Shown in pieces: positions 2,487 to 63,429 of a DNA stretch of 64,000 bases; the first letter of the stretch is position 1; each line of letters begins with the position of its first letter. The stretch lies in the sequence record MT764206.1; one strand, given 5' to 3'. The DNA is from Escherichia phage JEP6. The notes beneath the pieces are model-generated. The model was not told the DNA's origin and did not search any database. It worked only from the letters and a program-made list of their open reading frames with translations. The position numbers were made by a program, and so were the translations under genes.

Positions 2487-2731
2487 TATAAATTCTCTTT
2501 TAAATGAAAATGCAGGACTTATTGGCATTGCCTGCGCAAGCCCTCAAGGGGAACATAGGTTTTTGGATATTTAACGACCAGGATAACCATAAACCCGTCA
2601 TCATTCACATTCAAGAGGTACACCGTAAAACTGCCGGGGTCTTAAAACTATAATGATTCGCAAATCATTAATCAGACAGTTCGACGGCTCCTCGATTTTA
2701 GCTCACACTAAGGCAGTGAATCTCCAGTAAA

Positions 2732-6137: not shown

Positions 6138-7345
<1,208 letters not shown>

Positions 7346-8777: not shown

Positions 8778-10365
<1,588 letters not shown>

Positions 10366-28136: not shown

Positions 28137-31100
28137 ATGGCTACTTTAAAACAAATACAATTTAAAAGAAGCAAAACTGCAGGAGCACGTCCTGCCGCTT
28201 CAGTATTAGCCGAAGGTGAATTGGCTATAAACTTAAAAGACCGTGTACTTTTTACTAAAGATGACCAGGGAAATATTATTGATTTAGGTTTTGCTAAAGG
28301 CGGTAGTATTGACGGGAATGTTATTCATACAGGCAATTATAACCAAACTGGCGATTATACTTTAAATGGCGTCTTCACTCAGACTGGTAATTTTAATTTA
28401 ACTGGTATTGCTCGAGTAACTCGTGATATTATTGCTGCTGGGCAGATTATGACTGAAGGCGGAGAACTTATTACAAAAAGTTCAGGAACGGCACACGTTC
28501 GTTTTCATGATTCCGCCGACCGTGAACGCGGTATTATTTTTTCTCCTGCTAATGACGGTTTAACTACACAAGTAGTTAACATCAGAGTTCAAGATTACAA
28601 AGCTGGTTCAGAAAGCACTTTCGCTTTTAATGGAAATGGTTTGTTTTCTTCACCAGAAGTTTTTGGGTGGAAATCTGTATCAACTCCGGTAATTTATACC
28701 AATAAAGTTATCACCAATAAAAAAGTTAAAGATGATTATGACATCTATTCGATGGCAGACAATGTTCCAATATCTGAAAGCACTACTGCTATTAATCATC
28801 TTCGTGTCATGCGTAATGCCGTTGGTTCTGCTGTTTTCCATGAAGTTAAAGATAGTGATGGAATAACTTGGTATACAGGTAACGGGTTAGATACCTATCT
28901 TTGGTCGTTTACCTGGTCCGGTGGATTGAAAGCCGGTCATTCTATTTCTGTAGGCGCCCCAGGCGGCCCCAAAGGATATTCTGAATTAGGAACGGCCTCA
29001 ATTGTTCTTGGGGATAATGACACCGGGTTAAAATGGCACCAGGACGGATATTATTTCAGCGTTAATAATGGAACAAAAACGTTTTTATTTAGTCCAAGCG
29101 AAACAACTAGTCTAAGAAAATTTGTAGCTGGATATTCTACTAACGGAAGCGATTTAACTACTCCTCCAACTGAAAATTATGCTCTTGCTACTGTAGTGAC
29201 ATACCATGATAATAACGCGTTTGGGGATGGTCAGACTCTTTTAGGATATTATCAAGGCGGTAACTATCATCATTATTTCCGCGGCAAAGGTACTACAAAC
29301 ATTAATACTCATGGCGGTTTGTTGGTTACTCCTGGTAATATTGACGTTATTGGTGGTTCTGTTAATATCGATGGTAGAAATAATGCTTCTACACTGATGT
29401 TTAGAGGTAACACAACAGGTAGTAGTTCTGTGGATAACATGACAATTTCTGTGTGGGGTAATACATTTACTAATCCTAGCGAAGGTAATCGCAAAAATGT
29501 CATGGAAATTTCCGATGCAACTAGCTGGATGAGCTATATTCAAAGACTTACTACCGGTGAAGTAGAAATGAACGTCAATGGTTCATTTGAATCATCGGGT
29601 GTTACTGCTGGAAATAGAGGAGTTCATACAACAGGCGAAATTTCATCTGGAGCGGTGAATGCGCTTCGCATTTGGAACGCAGATTATGGAGCCATTTTCC
29701 GTCGTTCAGAAAACAGTCTTCATATTATTCCGACTGCTTACGGTGAAGGCAAAAATGGCAATATCGGTCCACTTCGTCCGTTTAGCATGGCTTTAGATAC
29801 AGGTAAGGTCGTTATTCCTGATTTAGATTTAAGTTATGCTTCTTTTGCCGCAAATGGTTATATTAAATTCGGCGGTCATGGAGCTGGGGCTGGAGGTTAT
29901 GCCGTTCAATATGCTCAAGCGGCTCCTATTTTCCAGGAAATTGATGATGATGCTGTAAGCAAATATTATCCTATTGTTAAACAGAAATTCTTAAACGGTA
30001 AAGCAGTTTGGTCTTTAGGTACTGAAATTAATTCTGGTACATTCGTTATTCATCATCTGAAAGAAGATGGTTCACAAGGCCATACGTCTCGTTTTAATCA
30101 AGACGGTACTGTTAATTTCCCTGATAATGTTCAGGTTGGCGGTGGTGAAGCTACTATTGCTAGAAATGGTAATATTTTTTCTGATATTTGGAAATCGTTT
30201 ACTTCAGCAGGAGACACCACAAACATTCGCGATGCGATAGCTACTCGTGTTGCCAAAGAAGGCGATACGATGACTGGCAAATTAATCGTTAAAAGAGGCT
30301 CTGACGCTATTAACATTGCTGCCGATGAAAATGATTCTGCTTATTTACTTGGAACATCGGGTGGAGCGAATTCGTGGTACATCGGTAAAGGCGGGGCAGA
30401 TGACACTGCTTCATTTTATAATTTTAAGACTACGGCAGGAATTACTCTTAATAATGTAGGCGATATTGATTTTAATGTTAAAAATCAAGCTACTGCAGCT
30501 TCATTAAATTTTTATCGTTTATATTTAAACGGAAGACAGTGGACAGCTACCCAAGGCCACGGTTACGGAAACCAATGGCAAACAGAAGCCCCATTCTTCG
30601 TTGATTTTGGTGAATCTGTTCCAAAAGATAGTTATATGCCTATAATTAAAGGAAGAAGCCAAATCATTAATGAAGGATATGCAACAAAGGTAGATTTTGG
30701 TATTGTTCGATTAGGTGGAAATGCTGCTTGGGGAAATGCAGTAATTCGTGTTGGTTCTGCAGAAAGCGGAGATAGCCCTCATCCTAATGCAATATTTGAG
30801 TTTCAGGCTAATGGAGATTTTAAAGCTCCGGTTGGTCTTCGTGCTGGTGTTAACTTAGCTGTTGGTACTGATCCTATTTTTGGTGGACCTTCTATTGCCA
30901 TCGGTGATAATGACACTGGTTTAGTATGGGGTGGTGATGGTCGTATTAACATGCTTGCCGATGGTGTTCATATTGCGTCATGGGGGTCTCAACGTCTGGC
31001 ACATGAGGGGTTATGGGATTCATACGGGTCGTTTTGGACAGAAGTCGGTAAAGCGATTGTTTCACATGGCCATTTAGTCCAACAGGGTGATGCCTATTCT

Positions 31101-31463
31101 ACCTTTGTTCGTGATGTTTATGTCCGTTCTGATATTCGTGTTAAAAAAGACCTTGTTAAATTTGAAAATGCTTCTGAGAAGCTTTCTAAAATTAACGGTT
31201 ACACTTATATGCAGAAGCGAGGCCTAGATGAAGAAGGCAATCAGAAATGGGAACCTAACGCTGGTTTGATAGCTCAAGAAGTTCAAGCTATTTTGCCAGA
31301 ATTAGTTGAAGGTGACCCTGATGGTGAAGCTTTACTTCGTTTGAACTATAACGGTGTAATTGGTTTAAATACAGCTGCAATCAATGAGCATACTGCAGAA
31401 ATTGCAGAACTTAAATCAGAAATCGAAGAACTTAAAGCATTAGTTAAATCATTGTTAAAATAA
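28137..31463 (+). CDS. 37: long tail fibre distal subunit gp37 with C-terminal intramolecular-chaperone-like domain
   Basis: 1108 aa; C-terminal ~110 aa show SDIRVKKD...GLIAQEV...coiled-coil pattern typical of self-cleaving chaperone domains. Confidence 0.85.
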
Positions 31464-31494
31464 TAAGAGGGGCTTCGGCCCCTTGGAGGTTTAT

Positions 31495-32289
31495 ATGGCA
31501 GTAGCAGGACCGTGGATAGGAACTTCTGCATTGGCACAGACTGGAGACCATTGGATGGCAGGAGCAGCCGCAAGATTAAGAATGGGAGTTCCATTTTGGA
31601 TGAGTAATATGATAGGTCGATCCGTTGAAGTAATTCATACACTTGGAGCAGACCATAACTTTAATGGTCAATGGTTCCGAGATAGATGTTTTGAGGCAGG
31701 TAGTGCACCTATAGTGTTTAATATCACAGGAAATTTGGTATCATATTCTAGAGATGTTCCTTTATTCTTCATGTATGGAGATACACCAAATGAATATGTT
31801 CAGTTGAATATTAGCGGTGGAGCTCATATGTGGGGCAGAGGTGGACAAGGTGGATGGACTCATTCTGGTGGAGATGGTAATGGTCAACAGGGTGGACATT
31901 GTATTCAAAATGACATTGGTGGTCGATTAAGAATTAATAATGGTGGAGTAATTTGTGGCGGTGGTGGCGGTGGTGGCGGTATCGCTTATCGTCCTCACTC
32001 TGGCGCAAGGTGGCAAGATATTGGTGGCGGTGGAGGAAGACCATTTGGCCCAGGAGGAGGCGGAGGTTATTCCGGTGGCGCAGCTTCTTATGATGGCCCA
32101 GGAGGTGGTTATAATTATGGTAATGCTCACTCTGGCCAGGGTGGTGATGCTGGCGCAAATGGACAAAATGCCTGGCGTTATGGCGGTAAAGTTCTAAAAG
32201 TTGGAGCTGGTGGCGCTGCCGGATATGCTGTTATAGGATCAGCTCCAACATGGCAAAATGTTGGAGCAATATATGGTCCAAGAGTATAA
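31495..32289 (+). CDS. 38: gp38 receptor-recognising adhesin (glycine-rich, T2 type)
   Basis: 264 aa from ATG preceded by GGAGG (ORF track used upstream TTG); multiple poly-Gly stretches separating short variable segments. Confidence 0.75.
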
Positions 32290-32976: not shown

Positions 32977-33249
32977 TTATTTGTTCGTATACATCTCTAG
33001 ATATCGATATACACCCTCAAAACCCTCGTTGAATTCGTCGATGAGGGTTTTCTTATCTTCTTGGGTTAATTCAGAAACAATTTTACGGAATGAATTCTGA
33101 TTTAACTTTCTACCTTCATGCGTTACTCCAATCTCATTCAGAAATGCAATAAAAATAGCACGATTCTCAACAATATCTTCTCTGGAAAATTTAATCAAAA
33201 TAGACGCAATAGTAATAATTTCACGAACTGTATCAATGTTTTTATTCAT
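32977..33249 (-). CDS. asiA: anti-sigma70 factor AsiA
   Basis: 90 aa; recognised sequence. Confidence 0.9.
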   Translation of the reverse strand: MNKNIDTVREIITIASILIKFSREDIVENRAIFIAFLNEIGVTHEGRKLNQNSFRKIVSELTQEDKKTLIDEFNEGFEGVYRYLEMYTNK

Positions 33250-37308: not shown

Positions 37309-37449
37309 TTACCATACTAGTGAATGTAGTGCCATAATAACATCAGAAATGAAAAGCACGACTTGAATTAATCCGAACATTACTCCATAATATAGTGCTA
37401 CCAATAAAGCAGCAAGGGCTACCGAGTAGCCCAAGATTTTCTTAATCAT
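37309..37449 (-). CDS. small membrane protein
   Basis: about 46-aa hydrophobic ORF by manual translation; coordinates +/-3 nt. Confidence 0.35.
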   Translation of the reverse strand: MIKKILGYSVALAALLVALYYGVMFGLIQVVLFISDVIMALHSLVW

Positions 37450-37597
37450 TAGATAACAACGCAAATGTTAAATATGCACACATACCCTGGGCTAAAGCTT
37501 GTGAAAACACACTGCTAGCATCGATACAGATAGTTAAAACACATGCTACTATCCAACAAATAAATGAAATAACTCCTAATAATTTTGCGATATTCAT
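37442..37597 (-). CDS. ac: small membrane protein (Ac-like)
   Basis: 51-aa hydrophobic ORF between 52 and stp, matching expected ac position. Confidence 0.45.
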   Translation of the reverse strand: MNIAKLLGVISFICWIVACVLTICIDASSVFSQALAQGMCAYLTFALLSND

Positions 37598-37604
37598 ATT
37601 TTCC

Positions 37605-37685
37605 TCACTGGCGTCCGAAGACGCCTTTGGTTTTAAGATTGTTACGATAGAACTGCATCACGTGTTCGTTGTGGAAATTACTCAT
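37605..37685 (-). CDS. stp: Stp 26-residue peptide
   Basis: Manual translation gives [26 protein letters not shown]; below ORF-track size cutoff; TAATG coupling to ndd. Confidence 0.8.
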
Positions 37686-38143
37686 TAATATGCCTGCAAA
37701 ACAAATTTAAAGTTATCAGCCAACATACGGTTCATTTCTTCAAGTGTTTGATAATCAGAATGATGATTACGAGTAAACGCTAAAGCTAACTGACCTTTTC
37801 CAAATCCCGTCGTCAGAGGTTTCATCTTAGAAGCAGGTAGATAAAATACCGTGTATGGAACATTGTTATTTGCAATAGTACGCGCAAGCTGAGATCGACG
37901 CTGGCGAATATGACTTAAAACCGCACTGAATCCTTGCTTAGAACGCTGATTACCTACATAAAATCGTGCAGACACACATGGATTACTAAATGGACGACCA
38001 TCTAATTTACTCACTAAAAAGTAAAATCCAGGTTTAGATAAAATATCTTTATGCGGAGTTCCCAAAAACCATTCACCGTTCTTGATTGTACCAATAACGG
38101 TAGCGCCTGCATCATTCAGATCAGTAACAGTCATATATTTCAT
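37685..38143 (-). CDS. ndd: nucleoid disruption protein Ndd
   Basis: about 152 aa from MKYMTVTDL. Confidence 0.8.
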
Positions 38144-38203
38144 ATTAATTTCCTCTAAATTATTTTCTACTCCAAGGCCGCATGAATACACACGGCCATT
38201 AAA

Positions 38204-40240: not shown

Positions 40241-40258
40241 AATTTTTCCTTAAAACAA

Positions 40259-40282
40259 AAGGGCCGAAGCCCTTTATTTTAC
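40259..40282 (-). terminator. hairpin with T-runs on both strands (possible bidirectional terminator)
   Basis: GGGCCGAAGCCC flanked by A-run and T-run. Confidence 0.4.
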
Positions 40283-40473: not shown

Positions 40474-40505
40474 AATTTTCCTTAATGTGATAAGGGCCGA
40501 AGCCC

Positions 40506-41444
40506 TTATTTAAATTGTTCAGTAACGTCTTCAACTACTTCGTATTGGCAGGTACGCATTTTAGCATCGTTGTAATCAATCGGAATTGATACTACATCAC
40601 GCGGATGTACTTTAACTTTTACAACTCGGCTGGTTGAACTGCCAAAGTGACGAATATAAGATTTAGAACACACATGCAGACCATGAGAACAAGTTTGTGT
40701 ATCATCGTCATTCACACGAGTACGTGGCATTTTAACTACTTTACCAGGACTATTATCAAAAGTATTTGAATGACAGTCAAAGTAATTGCTGCGAACTACT
40801 TTCCAAGCATAGAAGTAACCGTCTTCTGTAATTTCAATATCGTTTGCTACCAAGAAATCAAAGAGTCGAGATACCGCTTTTTGACTCGGGTTTTCCAACA
40901 GATTTTCCAAGAACGGAAAATAAAATTCAAAGTTTTCGCCTTTTTCCATCGAATCGAGAATACGATCAACTAAACCAGACCGCAATTCAATATTTTGATA
41001 GAACAAGCTTCCACCTTCAATTCGAACATCACCGGAAATATATTTTTCAACAGCGCGACGAACGTTAATTTTTTGTGCCGCTTCTTCCAATTTATCTGCA
41101 ACAAGCAGATTAAGAATTTCCTGGAAGTTTGAATGAGTATTAGGAGTTGCGTTATAAGTTACACCGTCAACAGTAATTGAAATGAATTTTTTAGATGCAT
41201 TCCAAATAATGTCAGATTTAGCAACTGGAGCAATAACTGCATCGCTATTAACTTTAACTGTAATATCACCGCTAATGGTAACTTTGGAACGCTCAGCTTC
41301 TTCAGCATTTTTCAAAACACGACGGATTGTGTCAACCGATACACCTTGCCAATCAGCCAATTCCTGTTGGGTATAATTACCACTTGAATACAGTTTAACA
41401 ATTTCAGCTTGTTCGTTTTTGGTCAGGCATTTAATGTTGTACAT
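40506..41444 (-). CDS. rIIB: rIIB membrane-associated protein
   Basis: 312 aa. Confidence 0.9.
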   Translation of the reverse strand: MYNIKCLTKNEQAEIVKLYSSGNYTQQELADWQGVSVDTIRRVLKNAEEAERSKVTISGDITVKVNSDAVIAPVAKSDIIWNASKKFISITVDGVTYNATPNTHSNFQEILNLLVADKLEEAAQKINVRRAVEKYISGDVRIEGGSLFYQNIELRSGLVDRILDSMEKGENFEFYFPFLENLLENPSQKAVSRLFDFLVANDIEITEDGYFYAWKVVRSNYFDCHSNTFDNSPGKVVKMPRTRVNDDDTQTCSHGLHVCSKSYIRHFGSSTSRVVKVKVHPRDVVSIPIDYNDAKMRTCQYEVVEDVTEQFK

Positions 41445-43869: not shown

Positions 43870-43904
43870 TTAATTATACCACATCCTTGTGGTAAAGTAA
43901 ACTA
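43870..43904 (-). promoter_or_regulatory. early promoter for rIIA region, overlapping 3' end of gene 60
   Basis: GTTTAC ... TGGTATAATTA. Confidence 0.5.
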
Positions 43905-44246
43905 CTGGCTCATCCATTCTTTACGAAGGTCAGCATTATCTCCCATGAGCATTTCAAAAAGCTCTTTCCAGTTCTCAGGAAGTTTAACAACATCATAAAC
44001 TGGGTTCTGAATCATTTCACGGTATTCAGATTTTTCCAAAGAGCCAAGTCCCTTAATATAACGGATGCTATGTTTAGGTAGAGCATCTTTGGCACTCTCA
44101 TATTCAGCGACTGTATAAAACCATTCTTGTTTTTTACCGACCTGAGCGATGATTACAGGAGTTTTGACAAAGCGAATTCTTCCTTGTTCAAACAGTTCTG
44201 GCCAATTACTAAAAAATCCGAGCAGAGAAGGATAAATAGAACCTAA
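43902..44246 (-). CDS. 60: topoisomerase II small subunit gp60, segment after translational bypass (codons 47-160)
   Basis: Frame resumes with TTA GGT (LGSIYPSL...) after landing GGA; ends ...KEWMSQ TAG. Confidence 0.85.
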   Translation of the reverse strand, partial: LGSIYPSLLGFFSNWPELFEQGRIRFVKTPVIIAQVGKKQEWFYTVAEYESAKDALPKHSIRYIKGLGSLEKSEYREMIQNPVYDVVKLPENWKELFEMLMGDNADLRKEWMSQ

Positions 44247-44296
44247 TCCAATAATCTCTTAATTATGAGGTATTTCAATGGATAGCCCGAAGGCTA
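44247..44296 (-). other. 60: 50-nt translational bypass coding gap of gene 60
   Basis: Take-off GGA 44297-44299, TAG 44294-44296, hairpin CCTTCGGGCTATCC at 44281-44293, landing GGA 44247-44249. Confidence 0.85.
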
Positions 44297-44434
44297 TCCA
44301 TCGTGATCTGCGTCTGTCATAATAGCGACATTCGCATAGTTCATTGAAGAGGATTTAATAGAACGACGAACATTGTTCTGCGATTTATATTTTTTCATAT
44401 CAATGCTAGAAGAATCAATTTTTACAAATTTCAT
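44297..44434 (-). CDS. 60: gp60 segment before bypass (codons 1-46)
   Basis: MKFVKIDSSS...TDADHDG ending at take-off Gly46. Confidence 0.85.
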
Positions 44435-46761: not shown

Positions 46762-46830
46762 CACTTATCCTCGTTTGGTTTCGGGAATATTATACTCCGG
46801 TAATCATAAAGCTAAAGGCCCGAAGGCCTT

Positions 46831-47091
46831 TTATTTAAAACGAATAGTCGAATCCTTGAAGAATAGTCCAGAACATACTGTTCCTTCTACTTTCTGCCCA
46901 GTAGGTCCAACAGCACGAAATCCAGTGTGTTGGAAATCATTTTCAGAGCAACCGAACCAGTTATATCCAGTGATTTCAATATTAGTAAAACCACTTGAAG
47001 ACAAAACTTTGGTTGCATTATCAGCATCAGTACATCCTACTAAAGACACTGCTAATACTAATGCTGCGATAGAACGATTAACATATTTCAT
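46831..47091 (-). CDS. putative lipoprotein
   Basis: Signal peptide with LVGC lipobox. Confidence 0.5.
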   Translation of the reverse strand: MKYVNRSIAALVLAVSLVGCTDADNATKVLSSSGFTNIEITGYNWFGCSENDFQHTGFRAVGPTGQKVEGTVCSGLFFKDSTIRFK

Positions 47092-56834: not shown

Positions 56835-56858
56835 GAAAAAAGGACTCCCGAAGGAGTC
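56835..56858 (-). terminator. rho-independent terminator after soc
   Basis: Same GGACTCC-TTCG-GGAGTCC hairpin as at 2287-2304, followed by T6. Confidence 0.7.
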
Positions 56859-56867
56859 CTTGAATTA

Positions 56868-63066: not shown

Positions 63067-63429
63067 TTAAAAGAATTTAAACTTTTTCTTTGACCTTTTA
63101 TTGAATGCATCTTGTAGTTGCATTGTAATACATTTTTCTACATGAGGAGCTAACTCAGCTTTTCTTTCTTGGTCAAGAACAGCAAAGTCCATTACAACCT
63201 TTCCATCAACCCAATCTAATTTTGTCACATACACAATGTGTGTAGAACCATCTTCTAGTTTAATGACAATCTCCTGGATAACATTTTCCATGGCAGATTT
63301 AATTATCTTAAGAGACTCATTAAAAAGACGTTCTTTTCTTTCTTCTTCCCCCTCCGAAGAGGGGGATTCATCGATAATTTCTAGATCTAAGTCTAAATCA
63401 TCTTTATTCATTAAATTCTTCCATATCAC
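63067..63429 (-). CDS. 40: gp40 head vertex assembly protein
   Basis: 120-aa ORF between uvsX and 41. Confidence 0.6.
   Translation of the reverse strand: MIWKNLMNKDDLDLDLEIIDESPSSEGEEERKERLFNESLKIIKSAMENVIQEIVIKLEDGSTHIVYVTKLDWVDGKVVMDFAVLDQERKAELAPHVEKCITMQLQDAFNKRSKKKFKFF

Follow-up and report, generated by a model that had tools for sequence, protein, structure and literature searches.

The 81-nt segment at positions 37605 to 37685 of the minus strand in Escherichia phage JEP6 (MT764206.1) is very probably the stp gene of a T4-like (Tequatrovirus) phage, whose peptide would act in the manner of T4 Stp and whose 3′ end carries an RNA hairpin as an optional overlay. Positions are those of the window, that is, the whole 64,000-nt stretch of DNA that was analysed. 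The gene is ordinary and long known, it lies in its expected place, and nothing about the gene itself is new: stp has been known since the 1980s and was sequenced in 1988. For the window, the outcome is a correction of the annotation, as follows. A real gene of known function occupies what appears to be a gap between ndd and ac. The coordinates of the features under discussion are collected in Table 1.

Table 1. Features of the JEP6 window and Stp-family ORFs in siphovirus loci (for the latter, positions within each locus).
Feature	Position	Strand	Description and basis
stp coding sequence	37605..37685	minus	26 codons and TGA stop; ATG start
Hairpin within stp, GGCGUC-UUCG-GACGCC	37610..37625	minus	perfect; 6-bp stem, 4-nt loop
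TAATG junction ndd/stp	37683..37687	minus	sequence; same in T4
GAGG Shine-Dalgarno of ac	37603..37606	minus	sequence; same bases in T4
ndd (nucleoid disruption protein)	37685..38143	minus	152 aa, ATG 38143; PF06591, 315 bits; T4 order
ac (acridine resistance)	37442..37597	minus	51-aa predicted membrane protein; T4 annotation; PHROG 2501
52.1	37309..37449	minus	46-aa predicted membrane protein; PF24129 DUF7396, 79.8 bits; T4 annotation
Further TTCG-loop hairpins (examples)	1402-1415, 2286-2305, 40258-40275, 40490-40509, 46814-46831, 56840-56861, 63347-63366	minus	
Further TTCG-loop hairpin (example)	31468-31483	plus	
pnk/pseT, polynucleotide kinase-phosphatase	6138..7046	minus	heals the tRNA-Lys cut; PF25109, 200.9 bits, and AAA_33; role from PMC3014915
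rnlA (gene 63), RNA ligase 1	8778..9938	minus	seals the healed tRNA; PF20819, 135.7 bits, and PF09511, 88.6 bits; role from PMC3014915
Gene 60 with translational bypass element	43902..44434, core 44247..44299	minus	ATG at 44434
Distal tail-fibre gene	28137..31463	plus	1108 aa
ORF in adhesin/chaperone position	31495..32289	plus	~264 aa from ATG 31495
Stp-family ORF, Raoultella phage RP180 (L003)	2501-2578		
Stp-family ORF, L004	2501-2578		
Stp-family ORF, L006	2001-2078		
Stp-family ORF, L024	1501-1581		
Stp-family ORF, L025	1501-1581		

An ORF search with translation of the minus strand yields a 26-residue peptide at this position, which bears out the coordinates and the translation given in an earlier, sequence-only reading that had called the frame a 26-codon stp. 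The peptide is identical over its 26 residues to T4 Stp (NP_049878), for which the reference genome of T4 gives the label ‘activator of host PrrC lysyl-tRNA endonuclease’. In the alignment with T4 stp that the same reading had suggested as a check, no peptide mismatch appears, and 79 of the 81 nucleotides agree. Both differences are synonymous; the sole base changes between the T4 and window genes fall in His5 (CAC against CAT) and Thr19 (ACC against ACT). The peptide matches the Anticodon nuclease activator family, PF08133, at positions 1–26 of 26 with 75.3 bits (E = 2e-21; curated cut-off, 25 bits). It also matches PHROG 6763, which bears the same label as the T4 protein, with 75.4 bits. The window is Tequatrovirus DNA, with ~96% identity to phage HY03 across 20 kb.

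The window and T4 (NC_000866) share the gene order 52, 52.1, ac, stp, ndd, ndd.1. By Pfam, the gp52 neighbour has a topoisomerase family match, with MotA further on, and 52.1 overlaps the 3′ end of ac by 8 nt. As in T-even genomes, a peptide of ~25–28 residues is encoded between ndd and ac. The flanking ndd and ac genes, the TAATG, the stop/Shine-Dalgarno overlap and the hairpin are all the same in the window as in T4; the window ndd differs from T4 ndd by a few substitutions and one extra codon. At the upstream junction, the ndd stop TAA (37687..37685) and the stp ATG (37685..37683) overlap by one base, with a weak AGG placed 7 nt before the ATG. The arrangement suggests that stp translation would be coupled to that of ndd through the TAATG overlap, with help from the weak AGG. 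At the downstream junction, the GAGG at 37606..37603 shares its G and A with the stp TGA (37607..37605) and precedes the ac ATG (37597..37595) by 5 nt. Both junctions had been picked out in the sequence-only reading, namely coupling to ndd by TAATG, which is identical in T4, and a stop codon forming part of the Shine-Dalgarno of the ‘next small membrane ORF’; that ORF proves to be the known gene ac. In the spacer between ndd.1 and ndd (38145..38200, minus), a GGCCG..CGGCC hairpin is followed by TTGGAGTAG, a sequence identical in T4. The spacer includes a GGAG motif like those at which the RegB endoribonuclease of T4 cuts.

In prr+ E. coli, Stp is necessary and sufficient for activation of the PrrC anticodon nuclease, and it inhibits restriction by EcoprrI and EcoR124I (PMC3014915). 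It is a delayed-early product that inhibits restriction and not modification, and its targets are type IC enzymes, type IA enzymes not being inhibited (PMC3014915; PMC1484252). EcoprrI masks latent PrrC, and Stp acts on EcoprrI. Activation of PrrC needs GTP hydrolysis, DNA with unmodified target sites and dTTP as a co-activator, and the cut tRNA-Lys is repaired in T4 by polynucleotide kinase-phosphatase and RNA ligase 1 (PMC3014915; PMC1484252). The interaction with EcoprrI/PrrC, which the sequence-only reading had attributed to Stp, is confirmed by this literature on the T4 peptide. A 2025 review agrees with the role of Stp in PrrC activation and calls its binding mode unknown (PMC12707154); a PDB search returned no chain resembling Stp.

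From the identity of the window peptide with T4 Stp, we infer that it would both inhibit type IC enzymes and activate PrrC. The circuit would run as follows. Stp, made early, would target type IC restriction-modification enzymes, blocking restriction and sparing modification. In hosts carrying prrC, the disturbed EcoprrI would release latent PrrC, which, with GTP hydrolysis and dTTP, would cut tRNA-Lys; Pnk and RNA ligase 1 would then repair the cut. The activity of Stp would reside in the N-terminal 18 residues, with the C-terminal tail dispensable. The pnk and rnlA genes are both in the window, and thus the phage side of the circuit is complete; the true start of rnlA is probably an internal ATG of the ORF listed in Table 1. 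Among phage anti-restriction factors sensed by a host guard, Stp is the founding case, the guard being PrrC. The same logic, a restriction inhibitor sensed by a guard, is seen for T7 Ocr with PARIS and for anti-restriction proteins with Ronin, where the guard then shuts down translation or growth (PMC12409349; bioRxiv 10.1101/2023.04.06.535777). Stp differs from these inhibitors in that it has just 26 residues, acts specifically on type IC enzymes and is not a DNA mimic.

Stp-like ORFs were gathered from phage records and IMG/VR contigs, with tblastn on phage records and a degenerate DNA pattern. Ten columns do not vary among the 11 distinct variants, which come from eight genera: M1, S2, H5, N6, E7, H8, M10, Q11, R14 and K18. 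All ten lie within residues 1–18, and all ten are present in the window peptide; the tail is polymorphic. The survey reproduces the published picture, in which residues 1–18 show almost no variation among eight T4 relatives, loss-of-function suppressor mutations are concentrated at residues 4–14, and the activity of Stp without its last 8 codons is only moderately lower (PMC3014915). Between the window stp and that of RP180, a Kagunavirus siphovirus, there are 11 synonymous and 0 non-synonymous differences across 24 codons, a sign of selection on the peptide. Stp of the T2 type (T2 YP_010073913; phage YUEEL01) is identical to window Stp in residues 1–18 and occupies the same place after ndd, whereas its C-terminus, NFGILGFKK or NFGILGSKNS, is unlike the window tail. 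A Shine-Dalgarno sequence (GGAG, AAGGAG or GGAGG) is present in every independent genomic context, and RP180 has a promoter-like TTGACT-17-TATATT 34 nt upstream of the stp ATG. These signals argue that the Stp-family ORFs are translated. Work on the peptide and its structure could draw on the siphovirus copies and on the ten residues invariant across eight genera, which are predicted to mark the contact surface of Stp. An amphipathic helix for residues 1–18 was considered and rejected, since the hydrophobic moment is not above that of shuffles (fraction at or above the observed value, 0.19 to 0.58).

The hairpin spans codons 21–25 (G V F G R) plus the first nucleotide of codon 26; from its 3′ end, the stop codon is 2 nt away and the Shine-Dalgarno of ac 3 nt. 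The structure is of the C(UUCG)G type: the UUCG loop is closed by C-G, it lies on the sense strand, and five of the six pairs are G-C. The sense-strand fold has an energy of −12.2 kcal/mol, with z = −2.5 against shuffles in a 36-nt context. Folding of the 161-nt context around stp is unremarkable (z = −1.35), so that the local hairpin alone stands out. The sequence-only reading had placed a hairpin inside the coding sequence, where it does lie, but the string quoted for it, GGCGTCCGAAGACGCC, is that of the plus, non-coding strand. Rfam gave 0 matches at gathering score in the whole window, and near stp just one chance-level match (E = 0.16).

Perfect TTCG-loop hairpins with a stem of at least 5 bp number 13 in the window, against 0.65 expected from shuffles, and 10 of the 13 are on the minus (early-gene) strand. 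The G+C-rich hairpins lie at, or 0–40 nt after, a stop codon, and several are 2–8 nt before AAGGAAAA or GAGGAAAA. Those at 40490, 40258 and 1402 (minus) are followed by ..AAGGAAAA or ..GAGGAAAA, and the one at 31468 (plus) by TGGAGG. Taken together, the TTCG hairpins look like punctuation across the whole genome. With AG-TGAGGAAAATATG after it, the stp hairpin shares the layout of these gene-end hairpins, except that the stp frame reads through it. The other UUCG hairpins of the window mostly come after a stop codon or overlap it by 1–8 nt, whereas the stp copy is inside the frame. C(UUCG)G tetraloop hairpins of T4 mRNAs were reportedly described by Tuerk and colleagues in 1988. The window copy is like the T4 hairpins in its loop, its C-G closure, its G+C-rich stem, its location on the early-gene sense strand and its position at a gene boundary. 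The hairpin over the last six stp codons is best taken as a member of a genome-wide C(UUCG)G gene-end set, and its role would be to stabilise or insulate the mRNA.

Among relatives, T4-type Tequatrovirus, Dhakavirus (with a 5-bp stem) and Gaprivervirus (with a UUUG loop) retain the hairpin, at −9 to −12 kcal/mol; T2-type phages lack it, as do all siphovirus copies, Kagunavirus included. The structure is thus specific to certain lineages. There is no covariation among Tequatrovirus, Dhakavirus and Gaprivervirus, the stems being identical wherever the hairpin is present, and the invariance of four synonymous third positions in ~16 sequences is, by our estimate, not statistically distinguishable from chance. 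The T2-type stp joins ac through TTGAGGAG and not through hairpin-AG-TGAGGAAAA. It follows that the role of the hairpin, if any, is not essential. We infer that it is an optional mRNA punctuation or stability element, lying over a tolerant part of the peptide and not needed for Stp function.

It could be supposed instead that the hairpin is the selected element, an mRNA stabiliser or punctuation between ndd–stp and ac, and that the last six residues are merely its translation; the 3′ part of stp would then be dual-coded, with the RNA structure as the dominant layer. Its architecture is like that of the other gene-end UUCG hairpins just before a Shine-Dalgarno, the activity of Stp depends little on the last 8 codons (PMC3014915), and three Tevenvirinae genera share the same stem while synonymous sites elsewhere differ. 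However, Kagunavirus retains G-V-F-G through 4–5 synonymous changes that destroy the hairpin, T2-type phages do without it, and no compensatory changes are seen. Since Kagunavirus keeps G-V-F-G with different codons, the tail is under some peptide-level selection. Selection on the RNA with the peptide tail as its by-product seems unlikely. It is tempting to propose, as a tentative but possible reading, that the 3′ end of stp is dual-coded, an inter-cistron hairpin having been absorbed into the frame so that it specifies G-V-F-G-R, and that the Stp family extends far beyond the T-even phages.

An intrinsic terminator of antisense (plus-strand) transcription, its overlap with stp being a case of dual use, is a very unlikely explanation of the hairpin. 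On the plus strand, GGCGTCCGAAGACGCC is followed by TTTGGTTTTA, which is terminator-like in a consensus scan, this strand folds at −12.0 kcal/mol (z = −3.4), and two public records place a ‘putative transcriptional terminator’ on the same bases. The T-rich tail, however, is the reverse complement of the Stp Lys-Thr-Lys codons (AAA ACC AAA). Moreover, no plus-strand late promoter TATAAATA occurs between 27427 and stp, and sigma-70-like matches in the region are at chance frequency (43 vs 41 expected). A long terminator-like hairpin already follows the last plus-strand gene (33019..33051), and every gene between ~33.2 kb and 64 kb is encoded on the minus strand. A Rho-independent terminator on the sense strand was likewise rejected, as the tail there, AGUGAGGAAAAUAUG, is without a U-tract and the antisense strand alone fits the consensus. 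A second in-frame hairpin, GGGCUACUCGGUAGCCC, with a 7-bp stem and a 3-nt loop, lies inside 52.1 at 37416..37432; read on the plus strand, where its tail is AAGATTTTCT, it too fits the terminator consensus.

That the stp ORF is a chance or decayed frame, unexpressed in JEP6, is scarcely credible: chance alone yields many short ORFs (the 2.5 kb around stp has 34 of at least 20 aa, so that a 26-codon ORF by itself means nothing) and the own Shine-Dalgarno of stp is weak, but the peptide is identical to T4 Stp with synonymous DNA changes only, it is encoded unchanged in at least 422 phage records (tblastn), purifying selection is evident across genera, and the coupling junction matches that of T4, whose peptide is genetically and biochemically established (PMC3014915). 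What sets stp above chance is the Pfam match (E = 2e-21), together with the T4 synteny and the synonymous-only differences from T4.

In a spread sample of the tblastn matches, an stp CDS is named in 4 of 25 annotated T4-like records with a full-length ORF; the names used are ‘type IC restriction inhibitor’, ‘activator of host PrrC...’ and stp. The record of phage EO1 has ‘naphthalene 1,2-dioxygenase’ at this place, and the rest of the sample has no CDS there; two records mark just a ‘terminator’ on the hairpin bases. The sequence-only reading had also stated that its ORF track missed stp, which is plausible, since a default 60-aa ORF listing would skip 26 codons. Common gene callers have a minimum gene length of ~90 nt, and stp, at 81 nt, is shorter.

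Stp-family ORFs of 25–26 aa are present in Kagunavirus, Nouzillyvirus, Tlsvirus and Segzyvirus. They are mostly unannotated, and all are above the PF08133 cut-off, with 35–70 bits. The Kagunavirus stp is located after the endolysin gene. The Tlsvirus copies include phage Tls itself, the Tls type being found in 105 records at E <= 1e-3, and in Tlsvirus PHB07 the stp-like ORF is 1.2 kb upstream of an annotated polynucleotide kinase gene. In these siphoviruses, stp would be a stand-alone early ORF with its own expression signals, the Shine-Dalgarno and, in RP180, the promoter-like site. In a Kagunavirus-like IMG/VR contig (3300023038_000081; L015, 226-420), the stp stop is lost (..GGG GGA ATG AAA..) and Stp is fused in frame to a downstream small ORF (MKITD..); the fusion may be real, or it may be an assembly error.

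The N-terminal DNA pattern has no match in 185,579 bacterial and archaeal species genomes, and thus, at the stringency of the pattern, there is no evidence of prophage or chromosomal copies. A literature search found no report of the spread of Stp to siphoviruses, and profile databases may already include such members. Literature that pairs Stp with Drexlerviridae concerns just the unrelated host StpA, or T4 Stp as a control. The DNA of the siphoviruses in these four genera is assumed to be unmodified; T4-like glucosylated DNA already resists type I enzymes. If the wider family is real, anti-type-IC restriction would be directly useful to phages with unmodified DNA, and such use would explain why Stp exists in a phage with glucosylated DNA.

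Two other regions of the window bear description. In gene 60, the take-off GGA is at 44299..44297, followed by the TAG stop at 44296..44294, and the landing GGA is at 44249..44247. The coding gap is 50 nt (44296..44247), coding resumes at 44246 and ends at the TAG at 43904..43902, and a C(UUCG)G hairpin lies at 44278..44301. The gap reads ..CCATTGAAAT.. in the window; at the same place, we take the T4 gap to read ..CTATAGAAAT... On the plus strand, the distal tail-fibre gene and the ORF that follows it are larger than what we take to be the sizes of T4 gp37 and gp38. This suggests that a T2/T6-type receptor-binding module may be combined in JEP6 with a T4-type stp.
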